Below are positions 3,394 through 63,035 of a stretch of DNA of 64,000 nucleotides, piece after piece. Under the pieces are notes generated by a model. That model was not told where the DNA came from, ran no database searches, and saw nothing but the letters and a program-made list of their open reading frames with translations. The stretch lies in sequence record MF327009; one strand, given 5' to 3'. A program made the position numbers and the translations under genes. Position 1 is the first letter of the stretch. The number at the start of each line of letters is the position of its first letter. The DNA comes from Shigella phage Sf25.

Positions 3394-3700
3394 TACGTTT
3401 CAGAAGAGTAGCAGCACCTTTAGCGAATTTTACATCATGGAAAACGGTTTCTTCTTCTGTAACAACTCGAGCTTTAATATTTTCACAATCAAAGTGTTTG
3501 CGAACAATCTTCAAAAGCTGTAATAAATCTTTACATTCAGCAATATCAATAACATATCCACGGGAATCTTCCATTATCGCACGATAACCGTAAGCCATAC
3601 CATAATCGTTGAAAGATTGCTCGATGATAATTAAATTTTCCATTTTATTCTCCAAGTTTTTCTGTATCAGTAGTTGATATTGATATAGTACCATAATCAA
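3374..3700 (-). CDS. hypothetical protein
   Basis: ORF track; promoter-like AT-rich region just upstream (3700-3750). Confidence 0.4.
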   Translation of the reverse strand: MIMVLYQYQLLIQKNLENKMENLIIIEQSFNDYGMAYGYRAIMEDSRGYVIDIAECKDLLQLLKIVRKHFDCENIKARVVTEEETVFHDVKFAKGAATLLKRIAPLFN

Positions 3701-3747
3701 CTACTGATGTATATAGTTTTATGAAAAATTTTAAACTTTATGCAAAT

Positions 3748-5232: not shown

Positions 5233-5775
5233 TTAATCTAAGGTAATAAAGCCTTTTAATTCGGCATGGGATTTACGGAACATTACTTGATGCCCACCAA
5301 TGATAACTTTATCTTCAGGAACTTCATATATAGCGAGATAAAATCCTTTAGAAGATAATTCTTCACGCTCTTCTCGTGTGAACCATCTCATCATATCATA
5401 TTCACTAGCAAAAGCAAAATGATAAAGAGCTATAAACCATCCTGGAATATAGTGATCTACGCCTACATATTCTTCTTTCTCAAAATTAGTATTAATTGCT
5501 ATATTAGCATTTTTAACTAATAATTTGTCTTCACGCGGAACAGGAATTCTTTTATTATCATTACTATGGTGCATAAAATTAGGCCTGTCATAACCTACAC
5601 GTAATAACCACTCTTCACTCCATGAATCTATTATACTCCTGTACGGAGTTATTTGAACACAAAGATCTCGACGTATTGTTATAGCATCTTCATAATTAAG
5701 AATACTAAATGATGATTCAACACGATAAATTTTCATTTTATTATCCTCAGTAGCTATGGTGTTATAATACCACAA
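5233..5775 (-). CDS. hypothetical protein (true start probably the internal Met near 5736)
   Basis: ORF track; early-promoter-like site at about 5762-5793 overlaps the annotated N-terminus, SD GAGGA before the internal ATG. Confidence 0.45.
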   Translation of the reverse strand: MWYYNTIATEDNKMKIYRVESSFSILNYEDAITIRRDLCVQITPYRSIIDSWSEEWLLRVGYDRPNFMHHSNDNKRIPVPREDKLLVKNANIAINTNFEKEEYVGVDHYIPGWFIALYHFAFASEYDMMRWFTREEREELSSKGFYLAIYEVPEDKVIIGGHQVMFRKSHAELKGFITLD

Positions 5776-5799
5776 CTAACCGAGGAAGTAAACAACTTT

Positions 5800-6483
5800 T
5801 TATCGTTTAGTTGGAAGAGATAGAGGATCGCATTCTTCCTCTGATGGAGCGTCTTCTAGACCCATAGCATAGCGCAAAGCATACTTCATCATCAGGATGT
5901 CTTTCGCACAGTCATGAATAGAATCATGTGCAACGAATCCATCTAAAGTTCCCTTTGGAAGAGGACACGTGGTCATATCACGAACAAGCAGAAGTGCTTC
6001 AATTCTAGTACGAATGTCGCGTTGATTCCAGAATTTACAAGGTTCTAACTTAAATGTATCAAGTTCATTTTCAGAAACACCGTTGAAGCGCTGAATATCA
6101 CGAATAAGATCAACTAAAATTGGAAAATCAAATGACATTCCACGACACCAACCCTGAGATTTCCAAGGATCGATATTATGTGCATTGATGTAATCATTGA
6201 ATTTTGCAATACCATCAACGGTGCTTACATCTTCATCTGATGGTGCAATATTTTTTCTAGCTTCAGGCGATTGATTTTTCCACCATTCAATAGTGCTTTT
6301 AGTAAAAAGACGGTGTCCTTTTTGACTTTTTAAGTCAAATTTAATTTTAATGCCACGTGAAACTAGTTCATCGAATGTTTCAACAACTTCCGGGTTAGGG
6401 TCAAAAGCAATTACAGCCAAATCAATAACAGCTGCTTTTTCACCACTTCCCATCGTTTCAAAATCTATAATAAAATCAAACAT
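5800..6483 (-). CDS. dexA: exonuclease A (DexA), 227 aa
   Basis: Length and N-terminus (MFDFIIDFETMG, DEDD-type exonuclease start) match T4 DexA; conserved position upstream of dda. Confidence 0.85.
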   Translation of the reverse strand: MFDFIIDFETMGSGEKAAVIDLAVIAFDPNPEVVETFDELVSRGIKIKFDLKSQKGHRLFTKSTIEWWKNQSPEARKNIAPSDEDVSTVDGIAKFNDYINAHNIDPWKSQGWCRGMSFDFPILVDLIRDIQRFNGVSENELDTFKLEPCKFWNQRDIRTRIEALLLVRDMTTCPLPKGTLDGFVAHDSIHDCAKDILMMKYALRYAMGLEDAPSEEECDPLSLPTKR

Positions 6484-10163: not shown

Positions 10164-10783
10164 TCAACTACCTCAATATCATAAACTTTAAATGTTCCAA
10201 ATGAATCGTGTAATTTTTCTTTTGAAATAGAAGTTATTCTATACTTTCCAATTGGAATCATCCATTCTTGTTCACGCACAATCATCATTAAGTTATCAGT
10301 ACGCTCTGAATCTAGCCCATCAGTATCTTCATACGTGTACTTAAACTCAGTATTAGGAGAAGAAAGTATAATATCGCTGATATGGTCAGAATAATTAAAA
10401 GCTTTATCAGTTTTTAAGCGAAATATTATTTCAGTGAAATACTCAACATAAGAAAAACCACATGCTGTGTGCAAACTAGTAGTAAATGAATCTACCCTAT
10501 TCGTTGAAAACACTTCTCCAACTTGTAAATCTTTAATGAGTTCTTTTGTCGATTTTGATATACCACGATATAACTGATAAGGTGATTTAGTTAAATGCTT
10601 TTTAACGATTTTATTCAACTGCCGATGAAGAGCTTCATTCTTTTTAGCTTCCATACATTGCCAAAGAACAGACTGCTCAAAGTCAGTAAATTTTTCACAG
10701 ACTTTTTTATACATATCATATTGAAAATCGACACTTTCAGCTTTTATAGATAACTGTTCAACATCTGCAAGATTAATAATCAT
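10160..10783 (-). CDS. ModB-like ADP-ribosyltransferase (207 aa)
   Basis: R (LYRG), STS-like (FSTNRVDSFTTS) and ExE (REQEW) motifs in canonical order; length as T4 ModB. Confidence 0.5.
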   Translation of the reverse strand: MIINLADVEQLSIKAESVDFQYDMYKKVCEKFTDFEQSVLWQCMEAKKNEALHRQLNKIVKKHLTKSPYQLYRGISKSTKELIKDLQVGEVFSTNRVDSFTTSLHTACGFSYVEYFTEIIFRLKTDKAFNYSDHISDIILSSPNTEFKYTYEDTDGLDSERTDNLMMIVREQEWMIPIGKYRITSISKEKLHDSFGTFKVYDIEVVE

Positions 10784-10810: not shown

Positions 10811-11226
10811 TCATATCATCGTTAGAAAGGAAAGTAAACAACTTTTTGAATTATTTTGCCCAGGGAGCCCAAGGCGGAGGGTCAAGATGGTATGAAGCTA
10901 GTTCTTCTAGAAGAGCATCTGGGGCTTCAATTCCATAATTCTGTAATACTATACGGTACTCTTTCTTATAATCACTAGAATCATTCTGGTTATTCGTAGA
11001 ATGATTATCTTCTAACATTCATATCATCGTTAGAAAGGAAAGTAAACAACTTTTTGAATTATTTTGCCCAGGGAGCCCAAGGCGGAGGGTCAAGATGGTA
11101 TGAAGCTAGTTCTTCTAGAAGAGCATCTGGGGCTTCAATTCCATAATTCTGTAATACTATACGGTACTCTTTCTTATAATCACTAGAATCATTCTGGTTA
11201 TTCGTAGAATGATTATCTTCTAACAT
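10811..11226. repeat. exact tandem duplication, 2 x 208 bp
   Basis: Unit tcatatcatcgttagaaagg...gattatcttctaacat occurs twice head-to-tail with no mismatch; covers codons 6-60 and 3' flank of the small ORF 11059..11241. Confidence 0.85.
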
Positions 11227-13530: not shown

Positions 13531-14308
13531 TTAATAGCCTCGATCTTGACGAGCGAAGTTTTCAGCATTTTTCAGATAATAAAGTTTAAAGATTTCCTCA
13601 GCTGACATTCCAAGAGCAATGAATTTATTCATGAAAAAGTGAAATTGGTCAATCAGTTCAAATTTAATTTCAAGCTGATCTTCAGGAGATAAGTCTTGAA
13701 TTTTCTTGGATTGCATTTCAGAATAACGTTTCTTCCAAGGTTTCCATACAGCAGAAGCTTCTTTTTCACCATTACTCATACCACCAAGAGAAGTATATAG
13801 CTCGCGAGTTTCATCTGCGATATAATCGTCTTGGTTTCGCAACCAAGCAAGAACTTCTCCTGCAGTTTCAAGTGAATCAGGATGACGATTTGTTTCTGGT
13901 TTATCATTAGCCAAACGAATCTGTAAATGCCGCTGCATGTCAAATTTTCTTGGATTGCATTTCAGAATAACGTTTCTTCCAAGGTTTCCATACAGCAGAA
14001 GCTTCTTTTTCACCATTACTCATACCACCAAGAGAAGTATATAGCTCGCGAGTTTCATCTGCGATATAATCGTCTTGGTTTCGCAACCAAGCAAGAACTT
14101 CTCCTGCAGTTTCAAGTGAATCAGGATGACGATTTGTTTCTGGTTTATCATTAGCCAAACGAATCTGTAAATGCCGCTGCATGTCAAGCATAACCTGCAA
14201 TGGGTCAATACTGTGCATAATATACTCAGCATATGCACGATTTGCTTTATCAACACCTTCGATCAAATGAGCACATTCATTAAAGTGAGCCATTATTTTT
14301 CCTTTCAA
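13531..14308 (-). pseudogene. 56: dCTP pyrophosphatase gene 56 (MazG-like) disrupted by a 244-bp tandem duplication
   Basis: Two overlapping ORFs (13940..14308 and 13531..14016) share an identical 81-aa block; removing one repeat unit restores one ORF of about 171 aa at the gene 56 position between soc and dam. Confidence 0.7.
13699..14186. repeat. exact tandem duplication, 2 x 244 bp, inside gene 56
   Basis: Head-to-tail identical copies; unit length not a multiple of 3. Confidence 0.85.
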
Positions 14309-15714: not shown

Positions 15715-15748
15715 TTTTATAATACCATAACAAGCTGAGAAAGTAAAC
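15715..15748 (-). promoter_or_regulatory. early-promoter-like site (GTTTAC -35, TGGTATTATAA -10) for the nuclease-like gene
   Basis: Minus strand reads GTTTAC-N17-TGGTATTATAA. Confidence 0.45.
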
Positions 15749-15786
15749 AAATTTATGATAAATATTAATTTAAAGGAGGACGACGC

Positions 15787-21687: not shown

Positions 21688-22536
21688 TTAATCAACTGCT
21701 ATTGGATGAATAGCATTAAACTTATGAAATGCTTCTGATTTTTCTTTACGTGAAACGCACATGCGAAGAACCTTTAATGGTTCGTCTTCTTCACCCAACG
21801 ATTTTCGTTTTTCAATATTAGAAGTTTTCCAACGAGCTTGCTCTGGAAACTCTCTATTGATTTGCTCAAGCGCTCTATTATGTTTAGAATTACTACGAAT
21901 TGAACTGCACCCGCCAGGAGCTTGTGCTTTTCCAGATACAACCAGATATTTGAACAAGGCCAAATGCGGATAACCTTGATTAATTAAATTGAGAAATGCA
22001 TACATATCTTCGCACAAATCAATTTTTCCATACCCAATTTGTTCTGTCGTAAGTTTTCCAAGGTCATACCATGTATTCGTGAATCCATATGAATTTTCAC
22101 GATAATTACCCCAAGATGAAGTAATTTTAAAAATTGGTAGGCGAGCATGACCATGATAATACCCGCAATCCATGGCATCCTCAACGTATTGAATCAATTC
22201 ATAGAACTGTTCACGGGTTAATTGATTGACTTTATCTACACAACGACGGTCATCTCTTTTTCGCATTGAACTCATACGAATAGTAGTATCATCGTCAATC
22301 ATCCAGATTCGTTGACCTGCATACATATCAGTAATTGCTTTACGAGTACCGGCAATTCCGTTTACATCATCAGGAATAGTTATAATTTTAGCTCTAGACC
22401 CATAAGCGTCATAATAAGCTTTTTCTTCATGTTCACGCACTACAATATGGGGTTCATAATCAGTCGGAAACATATCAAGGGCAGAAACTGCCCCGACACG
22501 CTGATAACTTGGAATTACGAATTGAATCATTTCCAC
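21688..22536 (-). CDS. GT-A type glycosyltransferase at the beta-gt locus (282 aa)
   Basis: IWMIDDDT motif typical of GT-A folds; replaces the 351-aa T4 beta-gt between uvsX and 42, consistent with T2/T6-type glucosylation. Confidence 0.55.
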   Translation of the reverse strand: MEMIQFVIPSYQRVGAVSALDMFPTDYEPHIVVREHEEKAYYDAYGSRAKIITIPDDVNGIAGTRKAITDMYAGQRIWMIDDDTTIRMSSMRKRDDRRCVDKVNQLTREQFYELIQYVEDAMDCGYYHGHARLPIFKITSSWGNYRENSYGFTNTWYDLGKLTTEQIGYGKIDLCEDMYAFLNLINQGYPHLALFKYLVVSGKAQAPGGCSSIRSNSKHNRALEQINREFPEQARWKTSNIEKRKSLGEEDEPLKVLRMCVSRKEKSEAFHKFNAIHPIAVD

Positions 22537-23381
22537 TCACCGTTATAATCTTTTTTCACAATATGAGTTTCGCCAGTATTCCACCAATGATCAACCAAGT
22601 AAAAATGACGAGAATATACATGAAGACTTCCAACATTCCATATAATAGAACCTGCTTTATACTGACGAGTTGAATCGCCGGCATTCAAATCAGATACTAA
22701 TTTATCTAATACGTATTTTTGCCATGCATAATCATTACGGAATCCGAAGACCACGTCATTTGAGCGCATGCTTACTACTGCATTGACTTTCTTATCACGA
22801 ATCAGGTACTGTACTGTATTAGTACACATGAAATCTGACATACCATCTTTATTGTAGTCAAATTGCATGGATGGACGAGTCATGCTTACTACTGCATTGA
22901 CTTTCTTATCACGAATCAGGTACTGTACTGTATTAGTACACATGAAATCTGACATACCATCTTTATTGTAGTCAAATTGCATGGATGGACGAGTATAAAT
23001 CATGATACCACGTCGAGAATCAGGATTTTGACCAAGTTCAGCTAAACACATATCATACTGGGCATAGTTATCTTCTGACCAAATAGCCCAACCATAATTC
23101 GAGTTAATTTCGCCTTTAGAAGATGCTACCTGCTGCCAAATCTTTGGTGTTTCGCCTGGAATATCTTTGACAAACAGACTTTGAGACTTGTACCATTCAA
23201 GTTCACGCTGAATGTATTCATCATTAAGAGCGCCAAAAATAAAGGGTTCATCTGCTACAAATGATGCGCCAATAATTTCAATAGTTTTAACACCGGTTTT
23301 ATCAACTACGAAATCTTTTTCTTTTAATGCAAGCCCCAAATGAAGACGGATTTCTTCAACTGTCATAAAGTCACTAATCAT
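22527..23381 (-). CDS. 42: dCMP hydroxymethylase gp42 carrying an in-frame 38-aa tandem duplication (284 aa)
   Basis: Thymidylate-synthase-like fold; peptide VNAVVSMTRPSMQFDYNKDGMSDFMCTNTVQYLIRDKK occurs twice. Confidence 0.85.
   Translation of the reverse strand: MISDFMTVEEIRLHLGLALKEKDFVVDKTGVKTIEIIGASFVADEPFIFGALNDEYIQRELEWYKSQSLFVKDIPGETPKIWQQVASSKGEINSNYGWAIWSEDNYAQYDMCLAELGQNPDSRRGIMIYTRPSMQFDYNKDGMSDFMCTNTVQYLIRDKKVNAVVSMTRPSMQFDYNKDGMSDFMCTNTVQYLIRDKKVNAVVSMRSNDVVFGFRNDYAWQKYVLDKLVSDLNAGDSTRQYKAGSIIWNVGSLHVYSRHFYLVDHWWNTGETHIVKKDYNGEWK
22767..22994. repeat. exact tandem duplication, 2 x 114 bp, inside gene 42
   Basis: Identical head-to-tail copies, in frame. Confidence 0.85.
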
Positions 23382-24184: not shown

Positions 24185-24433
24185 TCAAATGCAAGTAGTA
24201 ATTACTCCAGTAGTGCTTATGCAGGTATTACCCATTTGCACACCTAAAGATCCATTTGTATTCACATGAAGATTATCATCAATTTTAACTGATATTTTAC
24301 CATTAGTGTGAATAACGGTGCTAGATTCAATCACAGGTTGAGTATCATTTTCAACACTAACAAATGGAACTGCTGCTAATGCAACTAAACAAACTGCTAA
24401 GCATCCCATAACAATTTTCATTTTATTCTCCAA
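24185..24433 (-). CDS. small secreted protein
   Basis: N-terminal signal peptide (MKIVMGCLAVCLVALAAVPFVS). Confidence 0.4.
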   Translation of the reverse strand: MENKMKIVMGCLAVCLVALAAVPFVSVENDTQPVIESSTVIHTNGKISVKIDDNLHVNTNGSLGVQMGNTCISTTGVITTCI

Positions 24434-24565
24434 ATCCGTATTAGTTGATAGTTGTATAGTACCATGGAAGAACAGTCTTGTAAACAGTTTTGTGAAAATT
24501 TTTTAGGGAATTCTAAAGGTCCAGAATCATCTGTTTTTCATAAGTATAGATTTATATTACTTGTA

Positions 24566-24601: not shown

Positions 24602-27445
24602 TCAGCCAAACAGGAAGTCTAACGAAGCTTTTTCTTCATAGTCCATACCAGCCGATTCACACATGCCTGCAAGCGGTTTAACAAACGATTTTTGGAACAA
24701 AGTTGAGTAGTCAATCCAAGACAGTACGTCAGAACGAATTTCTTTTGGAAGTTCTGTACCCGACGGCCAAGCAATGCATTTGTCACCAAATGGATTTCCT
24801 TCACGCAATGGAAGAACCATTACTTTATTTCCATCCAAAATTGGAGCTACACCTAAACCGCTAACAGCTCGACGATAAGTTAGCACACCACGAATATGGA
24901 ACGGACATTTAAATCCTGGCCAACCTTTATCATCATATTTCGCTATATCGTTCGCAGTTTTTACTTCAGCAATAACTTTATAGTCAAGTTGACGATATTC
25001 TTTCTCGAAGTTCTTGTAATATTCTTGGACAGACTCTTCACCTTCCTGAAGAATACGACGAATACTTTCTTCGAGAGCTTCTTGGACCGCTTTAGGCGTT
25101 GAACTCTGCTGAGTTTCCATACCCATGATTTTTAGATGCGGTTCAGCAAATCGCTTATCTTCCATATCATATACGTTCAGAGCATAACGCTTTTTCGCTT
25201 TCCAAAATCCGCCAACGCCCTTTGAACCAAGTGGAGGGCAAGAAATAGCTTCACGGTCCATATGCATCAGATGCTCGCGGTTATTCATATAATCACATAA
25301 CTCACGATATGCAACATCAATCATAGGTTCCATCTTTTTCTTACCGAACTGATTCATGAATTCAACTAAATCGTTCTGCTCTTTGAATCGGTCAAGACCA
25401 ACTTTTTCAATAACTTTATCTACACAAACATATACCGAATCAGTATCACCTGCTGCAATGAAATCTTCGCCATTAGTTCCGCATACTTTATTCAGATATT
25501 CATTAATTTTACGAGCAATCCACTGAATACCAACTTGGCCGAAAATTGTGATAGCAGTAGCATTTCGCAAATCATAGTAACGGAAATGAATATTACCAAG
25601 AGCACCATAAAGACTGTTAATAAGAATTTTACGGTTCAGCTGATTTGTGTTAGCAAGTGTAGCTGCTTTTTCACACTCTTCGATCAAACTATTAAGAACA
25701 GATTCGGTGTAATTCGATAGTTCATTTAAGAAATCATCACTGAACTTAACATATCGTTCAACTTCTGGTTTAGTTGAGCAAGACCCTGCGCCTTTCATAA
25801 TAATCTTTTTAATAGCTTCGGCATTCATTTCTTCAGCGAACATTTTCTTTTTCCAATCTTTACGCTGGAAAAATACTTTAGCGATTTCCTTTGGAATGAT
25901 ACCTTCTTGATGCTTATCATACATCCATCCATTCGGAGAACAAGAATATTCATCACTCGGTTTAGGAGCTGTTCCTGCGATATATTCATGAATTGGATGA
26001 ACTTTAAACTGACCACGAATAGTCTCAGGACTAATGTTAACCTGACGAATAATGCTCGGATACAGAGACGTCAAGTCAAAACTCATAATATATCGACGAG
26101 CAATTGGTTTAGGTTCAAACACAAATGCACCCGGAAAACTCTGTTTAACGTGCGAACCTTGTTGAGGAATAACCTTATGTTCACCTTTCAATGAGTTAAA
26201 AATAATAGCATCCCAAGTTTTAATAGGACTCATTACACCGGAAAAAGGCATTTTAGCGTAATAAGACATACTTAAAACTAGATCGATAAACCCGCGAATT
26301 TTATCAATTGCTTGAACTGATTCTACGTCAATGATGTTATAACTAATGTATCGTTGATGATTAGTCTCACGAAGTTTATTAATAGGACCGTCGTATGGTA
26401 ATTTACCTTTTTTGGTTTCATGTTGAGCAACTGATTCCAAAGAGAATGACGGCAAATTAGTAAAAGCGAATTTCTTGTACAAATCTAAATAATCAAGAAT
26501 AGATACGCCATCAATAGAATAAATTTCTTTGCTGCCGTACATATTTTGAATTAGTTTGGATTTTACCCGACCGATTGGAGAGAAACGTTTCATACTGCGT
26601 TCGCCTAGAATCATTTTAACACGATTCATGATATATGGAACGTCAAACCCCTCAATATTCCAACCGGTAAAAATAGCAGGTCGTTTCTGTTCCCAGAGAT
26701 TGATATATTCCATGAGCATATCACGCTCATTATCGAATGGCATATAAATTACTCGGTCAAGAATTTCTTGAGGAACTTCATCACCACCTTCACAGTCAAG
26801 CTTAGCAGCTAACTTTGCATCCCATTTTGATACTGAACCGTACATTGAATTCAAAAGGTCGAAAACATAAAAACGATCGTCAATTGAATCGTAATGAGTG
26901 ATAGCATCAATTTCATATTCAGCTTTCATTGGGTCAGGAAATTTATCACCAGTAACCTCAATGTCACAGTTAGCTACACGAACACCGTACATTGAATTCA
27001 AAAGGTCGAAAACATAAAAACGATCGTCAATTGAATCGTAATGAGTGATAGCATCAATTTCATATTCAGCTTTCATTGGGTCAGGAAATTTATCACCAGT
27101 AACCTCAATGTCACAGTTAGCTACACGAACAAATTTTCGGTCATAAACAATTTCTGAACCATATGTATCACTGATATAAGCGAGTTTAAAATCGTTCATA
27201 CCGAGAGCTTCGAGACCGATGTCTTCCATTCGCTTCATCCAATCTCGAGCATCTTTCATTGATGGAAATTTTTGAGGAGCGCAGTTTTTACCATAGATGT
27301 CTTTGTACTTTGACTCTTCCTTACAATGCCTAAACATAGTTGGAAGATATTCTACTTCACGAGTACGTTCCTTTCCATTTTCATCAATATAACGTTCAAC
27401 AATATTATTTCCGACTGTTTCAATAGAGATATAAAATTCTTTCAT
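24602..27445 (-). CDS. 43: DNA polymerase gp43 (family B) carrying an in-frame 49-aa tandem duplication (947 aa)
   Basis: Exo I (CDIEVTG), DTDS polymerase motif, KKRY; T4 gp43 is 898 aa; duplicated block RVANCDIEVTG...LLNSMYG. Confidence 0.95.
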   Translation of the reverse strand: MKEFYISIETVGNNIVERYIDENGKERTREVEYLPTMFRHCKEESKYKDIYGKNCAPQKFPSMKDARDWMKRMEDIGLEALGMNDFKLAYISDTYGSEIVYDRKFVRVANCDIEVTGDKFPDPMKAEYEIDAITHYDSIDDRFYVFDLLNSMYGVRVANCDIEVTGDKFPDPMKAEYEIDAITHYDSIDDRFYVFDLLNSMYGSVSKWDAKLAAKLDCEGGDEVPQEILDRVIYMPFDNERDMLMEYINLWEQKRPAIFTGWNIEGFDVPYIMNRVKMILGERSMKRFSPIGRVKSKLIQNMYGSKEIYSIDGVSILDYLDLYKKFAFTNLPSFSLESVAQHETKKGKLPYDGPINKLRETNHQRYISYNIIDVESVQAIDKIRGFIDLVLSMSYYAKMPFSGVMSPIKTWDAIIFNSLKGEHKVIPQQGSHVKQSFPGAFVFEPKPIARRYIMSFDLTSLYPSIIRQVNISPETIRGQFKVHPIHEYIAGTAPKPSDEYSCSPNGWMYDKHQEGIIPKEIAKVFFQRKDWKKKMFAEEMNAEAIKKIIMKGAGSCSTKPEVERYVKFSDDFLNELSNYTESVLNSLIEECEKAATLANTNQLNRKILINSLYGALGNIHFRYYDLRNATAITIFGQVGIQWIARKINEYLNKVCGTNGEDFIAAGDTDSVYVCVDKVIEKVGLDRFKEQNDLVEFMNQFGKKKMEPMIDVAYRELCDYMNNREHLMHMDREAISCPPLGSKGVGGFWKAKKRYALNVYDMEDKRFAEPHLKIMGMETQQSSTPKAVQEALEESIRRILQEGEESVQEYYKNFEKEYRQLDYKVIAEVKTANDIAKYDDKGWPGFKCPFHIRGVLTYRRAVSGLGVAPILDGNKVMVLPLREGNPFGDKCIAWPSGTELPKEIRSDVLSWIDYSTLFQKSFVKPLAGMCESAGMDYEEKASLDFLFG
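26837..27130. repeat. exact tandem duplication, 2 x 147 bp, inside gene 43
   Basis: Identical copies, in frame; includes the Exo I motif. Confidence 0.85.
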
Positions 27446-38706: not shown

Positions 38707-38864
38707 ATCAATTCCTCAAAGGTAATTCATATGTTAATAATACCACGGTTTGAACTTGTTGTAAACAACTTTGTGAAAAATATTTTAGGGAATGATAAGA
38801 AAGGAACGATAGCTTAGAATGGTAATATACAGAATGCGAGAAAGAAAGGCCCAGAGGGCCCGTC

Positions 38865-39502: not shown

Positions 39503-39973
39503 TTAATCATGTTTCCACACCCCATCGGTATTTGACCAAAGTCGCTGATTATCTGATCCTCGCCACAGCTTTTTGGTCGGAAGATTTTTCTCATACTTCC
39601 CATCAATAATAACATCAACATATTTAAGCATTTCTAGTTGTTTAATATCTTCAAATTTATATCCTGTCCACAACCAAATGCTTTTATTGGGATAAAGATT
39701 TTTTACTGTTTGAACAATGCAATGAACAACATCTCGGTTATCAGGATAGAGAGGGTCTCCTCCAGTTATAGTTAATCCTTCTATATAATCATTATTCAAA
39801 CATTCAATTAATTGTTCTAGTGTTTCACCAGTGAATGGAACACCGTTTCTAGCGTTCCATGTTGATTTATTATAACACCCTTCGCATTTATGCAAACAAC
39901 CTGTAACGAAAAGAACGACCCTGCAACCAGGGCCATTCACAAAATCACAAGGATAAAATCTATCATAATTCAT
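39503..39973 (-). CDS. nrdG: anaerobic ribonucleotide reductase activating protein NrdG (radical SAM), 156 aa
   Basis: CxxxCxxC cluster (CLHKCEGC); stop/start overlap with nrdD. Confidence 0.85.
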   Translation of the reverse strand: MNYDRFYPCDFVNGPGCRVVLFVTGCLHKCEGCYNKSTWNARNGVPFTGETLEQLIECLNNDYIEGLTITGGDPLYPDNRDVVHCIVQTVKNLYPNKSIWLWTGYKFEDIKQLEMLKYVDVIIDGKYEKNLPTKKLWRGSDNQRLWSNTDGVWKHD

Positions 39974-40227
39974 TGATGCTTAACCCTATGCATGATTTCT
40001 TTATTTTTACCGAGATTAAATCCGCGCTCGTTAGGATTTCCCAAATAACCAACACCCTTCGCATTTATGCAAACAACCTGTAACGAAAAGAACGACCCTG
40101 CAACCAGGGCCATTCACAAAATCACAAGGATAAAATCTATCATAATTCATTGATGCTTAACCCTATGCATGATTTCTTTATTTTTACCGAGATTAAATCC
40201 GCGCTCGTTAGGATTTCCCAAATAACC
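39874..40227. repeat. exact tandem duplication, 2 x 177 bp, at the nrdD/nrdG junction
   Basis: Identical copies; second copy carries an orphan duplicate of the nrdG start region and a duplicate nrdD 3' end. Confidence 0.8.
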
Positions 40228-41964
40228 GCATGTTCTTCTTATAGTATTCATCTTTTTGGGATCAGTTTCTCCACAAATAGAACAAACAAATCCGTTTTCA
40301 GTAGGAGTCATTTCATGGGTGCTTCCGCATGTAAAACATTTATCTACTGGCATATTAACACCAAAATAATCTAAATGTTGTGCAGCATAATCCCATACGG
40401 CCTCAAGACCTTTTAAGTTATTTTTCATATCAGGAAGTTCAACATAAGAAATGTGACCGCCTGTCGCAATGAAATGATATGGGGCTTCGCGAGAAATCTT
40501 TTCAAACGGAGTAATATTTTCTTCTACTGAAACATGGAAACTGTTAGTGTACCAACCTTTATCGGTAACATCTTTTACGCTTCCATATTTTTCTGTATCG
40601 AGTTTACAGAAGCGATAGCACAGGTTTTCAGCGGGAGTAGAATACAAGCTAAAAGCAAATCCAGTTCTTTCAGTCCACTGTTTAAGATGAGCATTCATTT
40701 TAGTTAAAATTTCTCGTCCAATATCACGACCGACAAGAATATTCAATTCGTGAATACCAATGTATCCTAAAGACACTGAACTTCTACCGTTTTTAAATAA
40801 CTCAATTATGTCGTCATCAGGTTTAAGACGAACCCCGAATGCACCTTCTTGGTAAAGAATAGGAGCAACAGTAGCTTTAACTCCTTTTAAGGAACTAATT
40901 CTACACATCAAAGCTTCAAAACATAAATCCATTCGTTCATTGAATAATTCAGCAAATTTCTGTTCATTGAACTGTGTTCCAATATAAGAATCTAACGCGA
41001 TGCGAGGAAGATTCAGTGTTACAACACCAAGATTATTACGTCCATCAAGAATTTCATTACCAGTCGAATCTTTCCATACGCTCAAGAAACTACGGCAACC
41101 CATTGGAGAAACAGGAACAGATGAACCAGTGATAGCTTTATTGTTCTTAGCTGAAATAATATCAGGATACATCCTTTTGCTTGCACACTCTAGAGCAAGC
41201 TGCTTAATATCATAGTTCGGATCGTCTTTGTAAAGATTAACGCCTTCTTCGACGAACATAACAAGCTTAGGAAAAATAGGAGTTATCCCATCACGACCGA
41301 GACCTTTAATACGATTTTTCAGAATTGCTTTCTGAATCATTCGTTCAGTCCAGTCAGTTCCCGTACCAAATGTAATTGTTACAAAAGGCGTTTGCCCGTT
41401 TGAACTAAAGAGAGTATTTACTTCATATTCATAAGCTTGAAATGCATCGTATACGTCTTTTTCTGTTTTAGATTGAGCATAATTCAACGCATCAGCGATT
41501 TGCCATTTTTCTGCATCCTCAATATGTTTTGCATAGGTGCGTTTAACATAAGGAGAAAGTACTTTATCTACATTCGCAAAAGTCGTTCCGCCGTATTGGT
41601 GAGAAGCAACCTGTGCAGTAATTTGTGCCATAATTGCAGTAGCAACGCCAATTGATTTAGGAGTTTCAATCTGTGCATTACCAAGCTTAAATCCGTTCTC
41701 AAGCATTCCTTTTAAATCTACTAAACAGCAATTAGTAAATGGAAGAGCAGGGGAATAATCAATATCGTGGAAATGGATAATTCCGCTTTCATGTGCTTTC
41801 ATAATAAAAGACGGGACCATATTTTTGGCAATGTGTTTAGACACAATACCAGCCATAAGGTCCCGTTGAGTTGGAAAAACACGAGAATCTTTATTAGCAT
41901 TCTCGTTTAAAAGGTCTTTATTAGTTTTATGAATCAATCCTTCAATTTCTTTTTCAATTGTCAT
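40147..41964 (-). CDS. nrdD: anaerobic ribonucleoside-triphosphate reductase NrdD, intronless (605 aa)
   Basis: C-terminal glycyl-radical and zinc-ribbon region (CFTCGSTHEM...CSICG); continuous ORF. Confidence 0.9.
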   Translation of the reverse strand: MTIEKEIEGLIHKTNKDLLNENANKDSRVFPTQRDLMAGIVSKHIAKNMVPSFIMKAHESGIIHFHDIDYSPALPFTNCCLVDLKGMLENGFKLGNAQIETPKSIGVATAIMAQITAQVASHQYGGTTFANVDKVLSPYVKRTYAKHIEDAEKWQIADALNYAQSKTEKDVYDAFQAYEYEVNTLFSSNGQTPFVTITFGTGTDWTERMIQKAILKNRIKGLGRDGITPIFPKLVMFVEEGVNLYKDDPNYDIKQLALECASKRMYPDIISAKNNKAITGSSVPVSPMGCRSFLSVWKDSTGNEILDGRNNLGVVTLNLPRIALDSYIGTQFNEQKFAELFNERMDLCFEALMCRISSLKGVKATVAPILYQEGAFGVRLKPDDDIIELFKNGRSSVSLGYIGIHELNILVGRDIGREILTKMNAHLKQWTERTGFAFSLYSTPAENLCYRFCKLDTEKYGSVKDVTDKGWYTNSFHVSVEENITPFEKISREAPYHFIATGGHISYVELPDMKNNLKGLEAVWDYAAQHLDYFGVNMPVDKCFTCGSTHEMTPTENGFVCSICGETDPKKMNTIRRTCGYLGNPNERGFNLGKNKEIMHRVKHQ

Positions 41965-45447: not shown

Positions 45448-45632
45448 ATTGCCTAACGAATGAGAATAAGCGTTTTGAGTATCTTTACAGATATGATTTT
45501 CCTGACCAACATATTGAAGGAAATCACGAAGAATATTATTGATTACTGCTCTGTGTCCTATCTGATAATTACGATGTTTAGTAATAAGACTGTGGTTAAT
45601 GGTTTATACTCCGAGCCATACTTGGCTTTAAA

Positions 45633-46934
45633 TTACTTAATTAACTGTAAAGCTTGTTCAAGACGATCAAGACGATTAACGGATTCTTCCCAAATCTTTT
45701 TAGCACTTTCATATTCTTTTTCTGCTTTATTTTTAATTTCTAAAGCTTCTTTATAAGCTTTTTCTAGTGCAATAACTTCTGGACGAATTTCTATTGGCTC
45801 AGGAGAATCATCGAGCCAATCCATCAATTCTTCAAGTGTGGTTTCTTCTTTAGGAGCATTCACAATTTCTTCACATTTCTTCTGATGAATTTCTTTATCT
45901 GTTAGTGAATAAGCACATTTCACTTCACGAAGACTAATTACAATTTTATATCCTTCCCATCCGCATATATTCTTAAAAGGATATGTATGAATATTTTCTA
46001 CTGTTTCCATACAAAGTAATGCAGTCTCTAACTGACGAGTTATAGTGCTAGCAATTGAGAAAAATTTATTAATATTCTTTTGGTTAGCGTTTGGTGTAAA
46101 AAATCCATAATTCACAAAAATAGCTACTTTATTTTCATCAAGCTCATATTCTAGTGAATAAGCACATTTCACTTCACGAAGACTAATTACAATTTTATAT
46201 CCTTCCCATCCGCATATATTCTTAAAAGGATATGTATGAATATTTTCTACTGTTTCCATACAAAGTAATGCAGTCTCTAACTGACGAGTTATAGTGCTAG
46301 CAATTGAGAAAAATTTATTAATATTCTTTTGGTTAGCGTTTGGTGTAAAAAATCCATAATTCACAAAAATAGCTACTTTATTTTCATCAAGCTCATATTC
46401 TTTTACGATAATCATATCAGAAGCCAAAGGATGAATTTGACGATAATCGCCATAACATAATTTAGAAGCTGATTTTAGAATTTGTCCTTTGAAAAGTCTG
46501 AAATTACTAATCCAACGACGAGTAAAAATATTCTCAGGGTCTTCTTTATTATTAAGATGATAAGAATTAACATCACCGAACCAATTATATCCTACTACAT
46601 CTTTGGTTCGTTTAATTTCTTTCCCAAAATTACCAAGAATATCCCGATTAACCAAATATGAAAGAAGACGAGACTCTTTAAAGGTTTTCTTGATATTATC
46701 TTTATCTACACGGCTAGAAATTTTACGAATTTCATGAATAAATTTAGTAGAAGAAACAATACTTGCATCAACACTATTGAGCCATTGATTGATAATGGAA
46801 AGAACGATATTTTGACCAAACATCGGTATAGCTTTATCATCAATAACGCTATTGAATGATTTGATATATTCGTTACGAGTCATATTAATCTCCTCAGTAG
46901 AAAGTAAGAACATTATACCACATCCTTGTGGCAA
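45633..46934 (-). CDS. hypothetical protein with C-terminal coiled coil, carrying an in-frame 83-aa tandem duplication
   Basis: Block EYELDENKVAIFVNYGFF...REVKCAYSL repeated twice; shares FRLFKGQILKSASKL-like motif with next ORF. Confidence 0.5.
   Translation of the reverse strand: MPQGCGIMFLLSTEEINMTRNEYIKSFNSVIDDKAIPMFGQNIVLSIINQWLNSVDASIVSSTKFIHEIRKISSRVDKDNIKKTFKESRLLSYLVNRDILGNFGKEIKRTKDVVGYNWFGDVNSYHLNNKEDPENIFTRRWISNFRLFKGQILKSASKLCYGDYRQIHPLASDMIIVKEYELDENKVAIFVNYGFFTPNANQKNINKFFSIASTITRQLETALLCMETVENIHTYPFKNICGWEGYKIVISLREVKCAYSLEYELDENKVAIFVNYGFFTPNANQKNINKFFSIASTITRQLETALLCMETVENIHTYPFKNICGWEGYKIVISLREVKCAYSLTDKEIHQKKCEEIVNAPKEETTLEELMDWLDDSPEPIEIRPEVIALEKAYKEALEIKNKAEKEYESAKKIWEESVNRLDRLEQALQLIK
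45903..46400. repeat. exact tandem duplication, 2 x 249 bp
   Basis: Identical head-to-tail copies, in frame. Confidence 0.85.
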
Positions 46935-46941
46935 AGTAAAC
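46912..46941 (-). promoter_or_regulatory. early-promoter-like site
   Basis: Minus strand reads GTTTAC-N17-TGGTATAATG. Confidence 0.45.
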
Positions 46942-48215
46942 TAGTTCAGTGCATTTAGTGCATTGTTCAGTTTAGAACGTTGCTTCGTGAGATTTTTGAC
47001 TTTTTCTTGTGCTTTTTCTAGCATCTTTTCAGCTTCTAACACTTCATTGGTCGCTTTAACGAGTTCATCATCTACTGCCTTAAGGGACTTCTCAATCGCA
47101 TCCGCGTGCCATTTTTCAACAGGTTTAAGACTCGGATTTTCAATAGGAAGAAAATTCACTTTATTGAATTTCCATGCATCTTTATTACCTGAACTATACA
47201 TCCAAAATTTAGGATCGTTTGATGAGTAATTGGATAAATTTAAATTTAAGTTATCTTGCACTTCTTGCTTTTTCTCTTGCGTGACTTCGTCCTTTCTCAA
47301 AAAATCGTATTTAAATGAAACGATCATATCAAGTTCATATGTTGTTGTGTCTAATTTAAATCGTTCGAAATGCTGTGAAATCTTAGACTGAATAGGAAGA
47401 AAATTCACTTTATTGAATTTCCATGCATCTTTATTACCTGAACTATACATCCAAAATTTAGGATCGTTTGATGAGTAATTGGATAAATTTAAATTTAAGT
47501 TATCTTGCACTTCTTGCTTTTTCTCTTGCGTGACTTCGTCCTTTCTCAAAAAATCGTATTTAAATGAAACGATCATATCAAGTTCATATGTTGTTGTGTC
47601 TAATTTAAATCGTTCGAAATGCTGTGAAATCTTAGACTGAACAGCAGCAACAACATCCATATACTTAAATGCTTCTGTCAACTGTGATTTAAGACATTCG
47701 CAAATTGAAAGAGAATTTTTTGTATTAGGTTTAAAGCTAATTCGTGCAGTTCTATTATTTTCTTTTAATGGTCTTACTTCCATCTGAAGAGTATAACCAT
47801 CAAATTTCAGGTTCTTTAAGTTAATATCAGAACCTTTTAATCGACTCGCAGTTGATAAAATTTGCTTTAATTGTCTACGGAATAGAGCAATAAATCTCCA
47901 TTCAATACGATAATGATTTGGATTGAAAAATCCAGATGATAAATCGACCTTACTTTGACCAACGCCTTGAACAAATAGAGGATTTTTATAATCAATAGTT
48001 TTACAGAAATCGGTTAGCTGCTCACGAGCAGTCATTTGTGTAATATACCCCGCTTTACTAAAATGACGTAACCATTCACTGCTATTCATATATTTAAAGT
48101 GAATATCACGATTAACTTTATCAGGGTCTAAATTATTTTGGCACAAAAATGTCATAACATCACGAGTATAGCTGGCATTACGAATCATATCTTCAATTTG
48201 AGAACGAGTTTTCAT
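46941..48215 (-). CDS. hypothetical protein with C-terminal coiled coil, carrying an in-frame 83-aa tandem duplication
   Basis: Block QSKISQHFERFKLDTTTYEL...KVNFLPI repeated twice. Confidence 0.5.
   Translation of the reverse strand: MKTRSQIEDMIRNASYTRDVMTFLCQNNLDPDKVNRDIHFKYMNSSEWLRHFSKAGYITQMTAREQLTDFCKTIDYKNPLFVQGVGQSKVDLSSGFFNPNHYRIEWRFIALFRRQLKQILSTASRLKGSDINLKNLKFDGYTLQMEVRPLKENNRTARISFKPNTKNSLSICECLKSQLTEAFKYMDVVAAVQSKISQHFERFKLDTTTYELDMIVSFKYDFLRKDEVTQEKKQEVQDNLNLNLSNYSSNDPKFWMYSSGNKDAWKFNKVNFLPIQSKISQHFERFKLDTTTYELDMIVSFKYDFLRKDEVTQEKKQEVQDNLNLNLSNYSSNDPKFWMYSSGNKDAWKFNKVNFLPIENPSLKPVEKWHADAIEKSLKAVDDELVKATNEVLEAEKMLEKAQEKVKNLTKQRSKLNNALNALN
47142..47639. repeat. exact tandem duplication, 2 x 249 bp
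   Basis: Identical head-to-tail copies, in frame. Confidence 0.85.
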
Positions 48216-48223
48216 GGTGTTCC

Positions 48224-49381
48224 TTAAGATTTAAGTAAATCAACAATTTTAATTAACTTTTCACGCTCGGATTTAGCTTTACTACTCAGTCCAGATAGTC
48301 TGAAAATTTCATCATCATATTGTTGAATAGAAATATTCAGCTCTTCAATCTGTTTATTAAAATAATCAATTTGTTCAGAATGTTTTTCGTTACTACGAAC
48401 TGGTACAGGTTTTGTAGGCAATTTAGTTGAACTGGATTCATCCGGGCGATAAATTAAAATACAACTTGAACCAATAGGGCATTTTGCACCAGATGAATAT
48501 TCTAATGTTCCAGCTTCTTTTAAAACTTCAAAAGCTAAACAGAGATGATGCCCCATATTAACATAATCTGTAGAGTGAGCTCTGATCAGCTCTTCAATCT
48601 GTTTATTAAAATAATCAATTTGTTCAGAATGTTTTTCGTTACTACGAACTGGTACAGGTTTTGTAGGCAATTTAGTTGAACTGGATTCATCCGGGCGATA
48701 AATTAAAATACAACTTGAACCAATAGGGCATTTTGCACCAGATGAATATTCTAATGTTCCAGCTTCTTTTAAAACTTCAAAAGCTAAACAGAGATGATGC
48801 CCCATATTAACATAATCTGTAGAGTGAGCTCTGATGTAATAATCATCTCCACGAATACTAAATTTAAAGCATTTAAGGTCTTCTGTATTATTGGTCTTAA
48901 AAATCATTTGTTTATCTAGACCTTTAGCTAATCGAGCGCCTAATGCTAATAATCGTCGTTGATTTTCCCACAAATCCGCAATCATTTGATCGAATGATAA
49001 TTTCGGCATTAGTCGACCATAAAGGTCATATCCTTTATTATAATTGCGAAGGATTTCACTCGCATTAATACGAGACAACGCTCCAATTTTATTAAGGGCT
49101 TTCATGATGCGATTAGATAAACCCATTCCAGACCCGTTTGTTCGTTGTAAATGTTTATCTAATCCAAACCCAATATCAACTTTAAATTTATCTAAAATTT
49201 CAGCATGAACATCTCTGTCAATAACATTCAAATCCAAAGTTTGGTTAAATCTATGAAAAAATTTATCTGGCTCTCCACGACGAAGTACAGTCCATTCATT
49301 CAATTTTTTATTAACTAAAGATTTAATTACTGCATTGACATTATTAATTACTACTGACATATTTTCCTCACTCAATTTCAA
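48224..49381 (-). CDS. hypothetical protein with C-terminal coiled coil, carrying an in-frame 83-aa tandem duplication
   Basis: Block IRAHSTDYVNMGHHLCLAFEV...NKQIEEL repeated twice. Confidence 0.5.
   Translation of the reverse strand: MKLSEENMSVVINNVNAVIKSLVNKKLNEWTVLRRGEPDKFFHRFNQTLDLNVIDRDVHAEILDKFKVDIGFGLDKHLQRTNGSGMGLSNRIMKALNKIGALSRINASEILRNYNKGYDLYGRLMPKLSFDQMIADLWENQRRLLALGARLAKGLDKQMIFKTNNTEDLKCFKFSIRGDDYYIRAHSTDYVNMGHHLCLAFEVLKEAGTLEYSSGAKCPIGSSCILIYRPDESSSTKLPTKPVPVRSNEKHSEQIDYFNKQIEELIRAHSTDYVNMGHHLCLAFEVLKEAGTLEYSSGAKCPIGSSCILIYRPDESSSTKLPTKPVPVRSNEKHSEQIDYFNKQIEELNISIQQYDDEIFRLSGLSSKAKSEREKLIKIVDLLKS
48337..48834. repeat. exact tandem duplication, 2 x 249 bp
   Basis: Identical head-to-tail copies, in frame. 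Confidence 0.85.
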
Positions 49382-49830: not shown

Positions 49831-50358
49831 TTATGCGAGTACCGTCTTTAACCGTTCTTCAAACTTCCGAAGAGTATTCTGGCGTTCAGCTCTTTGCTTT
49901 TTATAAGTTTCAATACGCTCTGAAATGAGAGTGTATCGTTCATTTACTGATTCTTTCATAAAATCAGGAATTTCACGAGAAGCTTTAATCTCGTCAAATT
50001 TATCAATAACAGCTTGCTCTTCAGCAATTAAGTTATCATACATCAAAATATCTTTCTTGATGAACTCAATATCTTCTTGAGTTACACGAGATAATTTAGA
50101 TGCTTTATCCTTTTTGTACTGTTCGTTAGTATCACGAGACCAGTGTAATGTACGATTTTTATTCGTATTCTTGTAAATTTCTACAATACCAATCTCATCA
50201 ATAATAACGATCCAATTCCAACGTGATTTGTAAATTTGTCCTCCATCAACAGTGATTTCACCTCCGATTGAGATGTCGTTAAAGAACTTGCTTTGTGCTT
50301 CAGATTTAAATTTACCATCGTTGTAATTTACCAAGTTGAAAATATCTTTAGCGTTCAT
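49831..50358 (-). CDS. hypothetical protein with C-terminal coiled coil
   Basis: ORF track. Confidence 0.4.
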   Translation of the reverse strand: MNAKDIFNLVNYNDGKFKSEAQSKFFNDISIGGEITVDGGQIYKSRWNWIVIIDEIGIVEIYKNTNKNRTLHWSRDTNEQYKKDKASKLSRVTQEDIEFIKKDILMYDNLIAEEQAVIDKFDEIKASREIPDFMKESVNERYTLISERIETYKKQRAERQNTLRKFEERLKTVLA

Positions 50359-50418
50359 TTTCTGTTCCTCCGTAGTTGATAGTTGTATAGTACCACAGAG
50401 GAACAGTCTTGTAAACCA

Positions 50419-50733
50419 CTAAAAGAAACTTCTTTCACAATTTTTTCCACTGAACCATGCACTTACCGCTTTCTTAGTCTCAGGAGCAGTGTTATCCATA
50501 AACCATTCAAAGGCAGCCTTTTTATGATTCTGGAGGGCTTCTCGGGCTTTAATCTGCTCACGGTCTATTAACACTAACATATGAGCCTTTCTTGTCACCA
50601 TGGGCTTCTTATGATTTTTTGAATACTCCCAGTCATTTGTCCATCGCATTGTCGTTGCGAACTGAAATACTGCTTCTTTAATTTTAGTTTCGTAAATTTC
50701 ACGAGCCTTTGAGTATAACATCATTACCTCCAT
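50419..50733 (-). CDS. hypothetical protein
   Basis: ORF track. Confidence 0.4.
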   Translation of the reverse strand: MEVMMLYSKAREIYETKIKEAVFQFATTMRWTNDWEYSKNHKKPMVTRKAHMLVLIDREQIKAREALQNHKKAAFEWFMDNTAPETKKAVSAWFSGKNCERSFF

Positions 50734-50822: not shown

Positions 50823-51857
50823 TTATTTCAGAAGAGTAACCTCAGCAATTTCTTCCCAACCGTTTTTGTCGGTCATAATAAAGTCAGCAAGATAAAGAGC
50901 AGTACGCAGTGAAACATTGCGTAAACGATTAACATTAACTTTCATCCATGATAATGCTTTATAAGTTTCTTCATCAGAAAGACCGCGCTTTTGCATCATG
51001 TCAGTTGAAAGAATAACATCTTCAACCCTGACCATAATTTCTTCATTAGTGTGAACACCCAAATCTAAATAAACCGAGCGGGACACTAATGCTTGTAAAT
51101 GTGGAGCAAGTTTAGTACCACGGTCTAATTCGCGGTCAATGTCAACGTTTGTGATAAAAACAATCGTTCCTTTAAATTCAAACTCACGCTCAATGCCTTT
51201 TTCTTCTAAGTAAGAAGACGCAGTGCTCCAGCAGACTTTACGGGTCTCTCCAGTGTCCAGAGCGGCTTTTAGAAGATTAAGAATGTCCATATCAGAGAAA
51301 ACATCCACATCATCAATCAAAAGGACAGAATTCTCTTCACGATTATTCCAAAGCTGTTCATAAAGACCGATACCAGAGATTTTACCATTAATGCTTTTAT
51401 ATTCAATGTATCCAATATCATTTGCTTTATTTAAAGCTTTATCTAAAGAATACGTTTTACCAATACCTGCTGCACCAGAGATAATTAATGAACGAATGTT
51501 TCCGTTAATAATACCATTCGTCATCATTCCCATAACATTAAATCTTTTATTAATGCGGGTTTTCATATCTTCATACGATTCTTTAACTTCTTCAACTTTT
51601 ACACCATCATATGAAATGTCTGATTTGTAAACCCAAACACCGCGACGCTTACCGTCAATTTCAACAAAAACTTTACCATCTCCTTGCGCATCTACTGGAG
51701 CATTATCAGGGAACCACTCACCTAAGAGTTCAAAAGTTCCAGAGATTTCTTTGCCAAAGTAGATACCCTTATTGATAGTTACAGTTTTCATTTTATTCTC
51801 CAAATCCGCATCAGTTGATAGTTGTATAGTACCATAAAGCTTTATGCTTGTAAACAA
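50823..51857 (-). CDS. AAA+/P-loop ATPase
   Basis: Walker A GAAGIGKT, Walker B LLIDDVD. Confidence 0.55.
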   Translation of the reverse strand: MFTSIKLYGTIQLSTDADLENKMKTVTINKGIYFGKEISGTFELLGEWFPDNAPVDAQGDGKVFVEIDGKRRGVWVYKSDISYDGVKVEEVKESYEDMKTRINKRFNVMGMMTNGIINGNIRSLIISGAAGIGKTYSLDKALNKANDIGYIEYKSINGKISGIGLYEQLWNNREENSVLLIDDVDVFSDMDILNLLKAALDTGETRKVCWSTASSYLEEKGIEREFEFKGTIVFITNVDIDRELDRGTKLAPHLQALVSRSVYLDLGVHTNEEIMVRVEDVILSTDMMQKRGLSDEETYKALSWMKVNVNRLRNVSLRTALYLADFIMTDKNGWEEIAEVTLLK

Positions 51858-51879
51858 CTTTGTGAAAAAATTTTGAAAT

Positions 51880-55211: not shown

Positions 55212-55363
55212 GCCATGTGAGTTGCAACTTCATCACACATATTATAACGTTTCTTAAGAAATTCTACAAGTTCTTCACTAGTAACTTCATCCATGTCGAC
55301 GAAAAAATCACCATTAATGATGACGTAGATATTTCCTTCTTGATTGAGTGCTTCAATTTTCAT
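55175..55363 (-). CDS. hypothetical protein
   Basis: ORF track. Confidence 0.3.
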
Positions 55364-55376
55364 GATGTTCTCCTCT

Positions 55377-55700
55377 TTATCCGATAGTTGTATAGTACCA
55401 CAGAATGCTGTTAGATTGGTCTAGTATGTGATCAATCATTTTAATTGTGTCGGTAGGAAGTTTACTGGCATCTGGAATTGAAGGCGTGTATTTTCTACCA
55501 GAATACCCCAAATATTGCTCACCAAATTTATCAATCAAATCTGGCAACTCGGAGAAAATAAAATCGTATGCTTTGTGTCTAGCATAACTTTTAGTTTCAA
55601 AATGCGCAGAATGAAAATAAGCTTGTGCAGCCATTAATAAACCTAAGTATTCATCTGCCTTTGAAGGTTTTCCACTTTGTGAAAAGTCGCTGAATTTCAT
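55377..55700 (-). CDS. hypothetical protein
   Basis: ORF track. Confidence 0.4.
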
Positions 55701-62416: not shown

Positions 62417-62470
62417 GTGTTTCCTTTAAATATTTTAATTAGTAATTTGTCTCTTCAAGCAACTGTGAAT

Positions 62471-62500
62471 ATACTATCACAATTCTAGGAGAAAGTAAAC
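62471..62500 (-). promoter_or_regulatory. early-promoter-like site upstream of internal-protein genes
   Basis: Minus strand reads GTTTAC-N-TGATAGTAT. Confidence 0.4.
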
Positions 62501-62504
62501 AACT

Positions 62505-63035
<531 letters not shown>

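Follow-up and report, generated by a model that had tools for sequence, protein, structure and literature searches.

Does the open reading frame at positions 48224..49381 of the Shigella phage Sf25 sequence (record MF327009) contain a segment that was duplicated in the phage, or did the second copy arise while the genome was being put together? The stretch of this record that was analysed, 64,000 nucleotides in length, is called the window here. The first-pass annotation had described a perfect in-frame tandem duplication of 249 bp in a coiled-coil reading frame and had pointed out that this was the third consecutive gene with a duplication of identical length. As a description of the deposited letters this was accurate. 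TRF, a repeat search, and direct comparison all gave 100% identity over 249 nt between two copies lying head to tail. The repeat is in frame, and the 83-amino-acid block IRAHSTDY...NKQIEEL is present twice in the product. Perfect 249-nt repeats were also found in the two adjacent orthologues of nrdC.4 and nrdC.5. The position of the junction between the copies (48585/48586) is ambiguous by 1 nt at most, and the junction is thus without microhomology. An exact adjacent repeat of 249 nt is not explicable by chance. The features of the locus are as follows.

48224..49360, minus strand: host gene, orthologue of T4 nrdC.6 (Sf25_gp220, AUV63500.1); phrog_2257, with PF26899 in the precomputed annotation; function unknown
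48337..48585, minus strand: copy 1 of the repeat, 100% identical to copy 2 and to the single copy in Sf24 and G50
48586..48834, minus strand: copy 2 of the repeat, 100% identical to copy 1
48835: first base to the right of the junction that differs from Sf24; base 250 of the right-hand piece, directly after copy 2

The window is a Tequatrovirus (T4-like) segment which runs from gene 39 to beyond nrdC.11 with the genes on the minus strand, and Sf25 falls within the species Tequatrovirus sf24 according to the NCBI taxonomy. The probable real start of the nrdC.6 orthologue is the ATG at 49360; the listed reading frame extends to a TTG at 49381. The product has 378 amino acids as deposited and 295 after the removal of one copy, and it matched phrog_2257 with an E-value of 8.8e-153 over residues 1–295. 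No match was obtained with a local copy of Pfam. The gene keeps its place between nrdC.5 and nrdC.7, in synteny with T4, Sf24, Sf21, and G50. In its one-copy form it resembles the T4 NrdC.6 family, conserved in Tevenvirinae, over the full length (295 aa, 93–99% identity) and in its position within the conserved nrdC.3–nrdC.11 gene order. The difference is the 83-aa insert, which occurs in the deposited Sf25 version only; nothing else sets this protein apart.

The repeated unit corresponds to residues 176–258 of the single-copy protein. Its structural setting was examined on the AlphaFold model (mean pLDDT 76) of a single-copy NrdC.6 homologue with 98% identity; no significant PDB fold matched this model, the best Foldseek E-value being 0.028, to designed proteins. 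The unit starts in a predicted strand (173–178), continues across a linker of low confidence, and stops midway through a predicted helix (242–271); on this model it is no structural or functional module. The earlier description of the reading frame as a coiled coil agrees in part with the model, in which long C-terminal helices (242–271 and 277–294) are predicted.

The products of nrdC.4, nrdC.5, and nrdC.6 are assigned to three separate PHROGs, none with a known function. We considered whether the three genes might be paralogues duplicated at a homologous domain, and rejected this: they have no detectable mutual similarity and belong to different PHROGs. The orthologues of nrdC.4–nrdC.6 (45633–49360) are named “thioredoxin” in many database entries. 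Pfam showed no thioredoxin domain in their products, two of which had no match, the nrdC.5 orthologue being assigned to DUF7235. The name looks like a spill-over from the neighbouring nrdC gene.

The nrdC.6 repeat is part of the public record, and so are others in the window. The Sf25 entry AUV63500.1 matches the 378-aa product at 100% identity from end to end, and exact Sf25 entries also exist for the nrdC.5 product of 424 aa (AUV63499.1) and for a DNA polymerase of 947 aa (AUV63457.1). Outside Sf25 the picture was different. Among 103 protein homologues of the nrdC.6 product, the Sf25 entry alone carried the insert, the other 102 being 207–298 aa long; the Sf25 entry is alone in its protein cluster at 90%. 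In the best 30 of 497 phage records covering the region, its length is about 1552 nt vs. 1801 nt in Sf25. The units of nrdC.4–nrdC.6 are single-copy in T4, in G50, and in four IMG/VR contigs, and in the sister phage Sf24 each of the eight repeat units of the window, listed below, occurs once. In the DNA polymerase cluster (436 members), all other full-length members listed have 898 aa. Neither the 32-mer and the 24-mer across the junction nor a strain-specific 32-mer from the flank occurred in the viral, metagenome, or genome contigs searched. No comparable repeats were detected in 50 kb each of Sf24 and Sf21, phages from the same laboratory.

TRF detected eight perfect tandem repeats of 2.0 copies in the 64 kb, all with 100% identical copies and without indels. 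In addition to the nrdC.6 repeat, these were the following.

10811..11226, minus strand: 2 x 208 nt in the modA.2 orthologue and intergenic DNA; most of a 60-aa ORF repeated
13699..14186, minus strand: 2 x 244 nt in gene 56 (dCTPase); not a multiple of 3, reading frame broken
22767..22994, minus strand: 2 x 114 nt in gene 42 (dCMP hydroxymethylase); residues 130–167 repeated
26837..27130, minus strand: 2 x 147 nt in gene 43 (DNA polymerase); residues 106–154 repeated
39874..40227, minus strand: 2 x 177 nt, 3' end of nrdD and 5' end of nrdG; gene boundary repeated, length in frame
45903..46400, minus strand: 2 x 249 nt in the nrdC.4 orthologue; 83 aa repeated, roughly 416 aa deposited
47142..47639, minus strand: 2 x 249 nt in the nrdC.5 orthologue (Sf25_gp219); 83 aa repeated, 424 aa deposited vs. 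341 aa

The unit lengths were thus 114, 147, 177, 208, 244, 249, 249, and 249 nt, and none exceeded 249. Junction ambiguity was 0–2 nt at all eight repeats, as chance gives, which leaves no microhomology. Six of the eight lengths were multiples of 3, and ends at codon boundaries were compatible with seven of the repeats. The latter had suggested an artificial edit of the sequence, a possibility rejected since repeat-bearing proteins are in GenBank and wobble-position SNPs account for the codon phase.

Some of these repeats affect genes of known function. Gene 56 (dCTPase/dUTPase; 13531–14293) is split by its 244-nt repeat into overlapping ORFs at 13531–14016 and 13940–14293; the removal of one copy gives an intact gene 56 protein of 172 aa. 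In the DNA polymerase (24602–27445), which has 947 aa as deposited vs. 898 aa, the Exo I residues D112 and E114 occur twice, 49 residues apart. In the dCMP hydroxymethylase (22527–23381), deposited with 284 aa, the active-site segment with the catalytic Cys148 is repeated.

The decisive result came from dividing the window at its eight junctions and aligning the nine resulting pieces (0–8) to Sf24. Pieces 1, 3, 4, and 8 each had a mismatch, their first or nearly so, at a distance of exactly 250 nt from the piece start, and pieces 0, 1, 2, 3, and 5 had one 249–250 nt from the piece end. In piece 6 the corresponding distance from the end was 247 nt, the junction there being ambiguous by 2 nt. 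A mismatch at 249/250 nt was therefore present at 9 of the 16 piece ends, with the deposited Sf24 serving as an imperfect proxy for a second haplotype, and none of 200,000 random placements reached nine; under the permutation null the mode was 0 and the mean about 0.7. Besides 48835, the mismatches at this distance were located at 10770, 11268, 13693, 22632, 23130, 26735, 27233, and 45903. Strictly counted, six of the eight junctions were covered (P = 2.5e-5), and seven were covered if 2 nt of junction ambiguity was allowed. An offset scan limited the signal to 249 on left pieces and 250 on right pieces. Sf21 was a poor fit as the second haplotype, with mismatches scattered throughout, whereas Sf24 fitted.

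Wherever the SNPs on both sides of a junction were seen, the unit length was equal to 498 minus their spacing, with a maximum of 249. At the 10811 repeat and at the gene 42 repeat the Sf24 mismatches were 249 nt away on the left side of the junction and 250 nt away on the right (498 − 290 = 208 and 498 − 384 = 114, respectively), and the gene 43 repeat showed the same two distances. At the gene 56 repeat a mismatch was found exactly 250 nt ahead of the junction, and at the nrdC.4 repeat mismatches lay 248/249 nt from it. The 39874 repeat (junction 5) was the sole one without a mismatch at 249/250 nt, the nearest being at 236 and 268. For nrdC.6, the right-hand piece, starting at 48586, differed from Sf24 at 250, 263, and 266 nt and nowhere in its first 249 nt. 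The left-hand piece (47391–48585) is a block of 1195 nt almost identical to Sf24, without a mismatch within 320 nt of the junction. All eight units are inside mismatch-free intervals of at least 250 nt; a few Sf24 mismatches do fall inside units or closer than 249 nt. No repeat is present in eighteen further mismatch-free intervals of this minimum length.

Judging from this sequence pattern, the nrdC.6 repeat is very probably an assembly artefact, made of contig overlaps that were retained when reads of about 250 nt from two haplotypes were assembled. The repeats, their absence from relatives, and their distances to Sf24 mismatches are directly seen; we infer how long the reads were, that the read set was mixed, and that contigs were concatenated, and we take the figure of 250 nt from the sequence pattern. 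The read set would have contained two close haplotypes, Sf25 and an Sf24-like sequence, the latter plausibly originating from a mixed lysate or from cross-contamination with a sister isolate among phages isolated and sequenced together. Where differences between the haplotypes were spaced beyond one read, no read would link them, and the contig would break. Beyond its last distinguishing base, a haplotype-specific contig would then continue for at most 249 nt, and the next one would start up to 249 nt before its first. Neighbouring contigs would share an identical overlap of 249 nt if a “shared” contig lay between them, and otherwise of about 498 minus the SNP distance. If the contigs were ordered and concatenated without collapsing the overlaps, each join would become a perfect two-copy tandem repeat. 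This geometry would be that of overlap or string-graph contigs built with reads of about 250 nt from a two-haplotype read set.

At the nrdC.6 locus, copy 1 would be the last 249 nt of the left-hand contig (47391–48585), and copy 2 the first 249 nt of the right-hand contig, which starts 249 nt before the difference at 48835; this site would have set the contig boundary. The one-base asymmetry between left pieces (249) and right pieces (250) is without explanation under the artefact model. Other features of the repeats agree with it: the copies are identical, adjacent, and two only, their length stays at or below a technical constant, polymorphic sites lie at a distance of one putative read length from 9 of the 16 piece ends, and the repeats are absent from the independent assemblies of the relatives checked. 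The occurrence of one 249-nt length in three unrelated genes is the limit of read length minus 1 and reflects no shared biological event. The idea of a biological in-frame duplication of a coiled-coil protein thus found no support, all relatives checked having one copy and 249 nt being a technical limit. The true nrdC.6 gene is an ordinary single-copy orthologue encoding 295 aa.

The prevalence of in-frame lengths also follows from the artefact model. The SNPs flanking the repeats of genes 42 and 43 all occupy third codon positions, so that in each case the SNP spacing is a multiple of 3. Together with offsets of 249/250 nt (83 codons), this spacing places the units in frame with ends at codon boundaries. 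For the three 249-nt repeats the frame is kept simply by their length, 249 = 3 x 83. The in-frame bias is accounted for in five of the six in-frame repeats, two by wobble-position SNPs and three by the divisibility of 249. The 177-nt repeat, also in frame, stands outside these five, since its flanking SNPs were not identified.

That the nrdC.6 repeat is an artefact of some kind, and no real biological feature, seems to us practically certain. An artefact might also have arisen with no second haplotype, if the joins had been made, for example, by software for gap closing or scaffolding, by hand, or by ordering contigs of clonal reads along a reference. Repeats that are perfect, free of microhomology, and never above 249 nt would suit such an origin, and the eighteen mismatch-free intervals without a repeat speak for it as well, the two-haplotype model failing to predict the exact join sites. 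However, a route without Sf24-like reads gives no reason why Sf24 mismatches should lie 249–250 nt from more than half of the piece ends or why the unit length should equal 498 minus the SNP spacing, and we consider this origin improbable. Even less credit can be given to genuine tandem duplications, which co-infecting T4-like phages might, for instance, have produced by recombining at mosaic boundaries and which might be tolerated as they are mostly in frame. Heavy recombination is typical of T4-type phages, and T4 has known tandem duplications; the proportion of lengths divisible by 3 and the location of several units at sharp borders between Sf24-identical and divergent sequence would agree with this. 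Gene 56, however, is essential according to established T4 genetics, and in Sf25 it is frameshifted, while catalytic regions of both gp43 and gp42 are duplicated. The copies have not diverged, the junctions lack microhomology, and none of the repeats was found in any other phage or metagenome sequence searched. Neither the ceiling of 249 nt nor the distance of 249/250 nt to SNPs has a biological rationale. An excess of about 1.6 kb per 64 kb, if present genome-wide, would probably consume most of the terminal redundancy of a T4-type phage.

Genuine in-frame internal tandem duplications do exist, such as those of the T4 rII region and FLT3-ITD. Real tandem duplications are usually single, often have microhomology or filler bases at the junction, and are under selection. 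The Sf25 repeats resemble the T4 rII and FLT3-ITD type in being head-to-tail, in-frame repeats which lengthen the coded protein. Unlike them, they are tied to a read length and to SNPs of a sister genome and number eight in 64 kb, essential genes included. Neither compatibility with viability and function, nor correspondence to a protein module, nor a second genome with the repeat or divergence between the copies was found. It is in our opinion very improbable that all eight repeats are physically present in Sf25 virions, left at the borders of exchanged segments. If they were, T4-like phages would possess a recombination-coupled process making short, exact, microhomology-free tandem duplications, and such duplications would be tolerated even within polymerase and nucleotide-metabolism genes.

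The preferred reading, retained overlaps between contigs of two haplotypes, has a counterpart in the literature on false duplications from unresolved haplotypes, for which “heterotype” and “homotype” classes were described (Ko et al., 2022; PMC9516828); haplotypic duplication is also addressed by purge_dups (PMC7203741). The likeness consists in the presence of two haplotypes in one read set combined with assembler or joining behaviour, in the adjacent position of the duplicated sequence, and in false gene models which spread into protein databases. In Sf25 these would be proteins longer by 38–83 aa and one broken gene. The cases in the literature usually concern diverged alleles of kilobases, often separated by gaps, in diploid eukaryotes, whereas the Sf25 repeats are an identical shared flank beside a heterozygous site, are not longer than read length minus 1, contain no gap, and occur in a phage genome.

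Identity to Sf24 alternates along the window between blocks with near-zero difference, e.g., 13.7–21.5 kb, 27.5–38 kb, and 41–43.5 kb (coordinates after deduplication), and blocks that are 3–6% divergent. As far as the sequence comparison goes, deposited Sf25 may be in part a chimera of the two putative haplotypes, or a natural mosaic. At about 45585–45640, where the 5' end of nrdC.3 meets the 3' end of nrdC.4, approximately 43 nt of Sf24 (L009, 45152–45194) are missing in Sf25. They include the start codon of nrdC.3 and its first 34 nt, and the ORF has 249 aa from a TTG vs. 309 aa in relatives; this loss could be a real deletion or another mis-join. The 3' end of nrdC.4 to the left of the 45903 repeat (about 45691–45890) is about 15% divergent from all seven relatives compared, far more than the surrounding sequence. 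The nrdD gene (40147–41964) runs uninterrupted over 605 codons, and it is continuous in Sf24 and Sf21 too; the T4 gene is split by a group I intron carrying I-TevII. The window also contains dispersed direct repeats of 40–63 nt (families D6–D8, D12, and D13), all upstream of minus-strand genes:

3652..3733, 5763..5802, 15718..15764, 24411..24504, and 38723..38785: dispersed repeats upstream of minus-strand genes
50342..50435, 51781..51874, 55359..55404, and 62470..62516: further dispersed repeats upstream of minus-strand genes

On the minus strand these show GTTTAC followed, after 17–18 nt, by a TAnnAT-like motif. We take these motifs to resemble T4 early promoters, for which they are candidates.

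The deposited Sf25 genome contains at least eight apparent false duplications in a stretch of 64 kb, which makes a case for database correction. Wrong models are present in GenBank, nr, and UniRef: a DNA polymerase of 947 aa, NrdC.4–NrdC.6 products of roughly 416, of 424, and of 378 aa, respectively, a broken dCTPase, and a hydroxymethylase of 284 aa. Such entries can mislead work on domain duplication, gene-length variation, and pseudogenes. The approach used here offers a cheap diagnostic which needs no reads: the sequence is cut at the junctions, the pieces are aligned to a sister genome, and mismatches are sought one read length away. For the biology of the phage the repeat carries no weight: the true locus is a single-copy nrdC.6 orthologue of the ordinary kind, in a T4-like phage.
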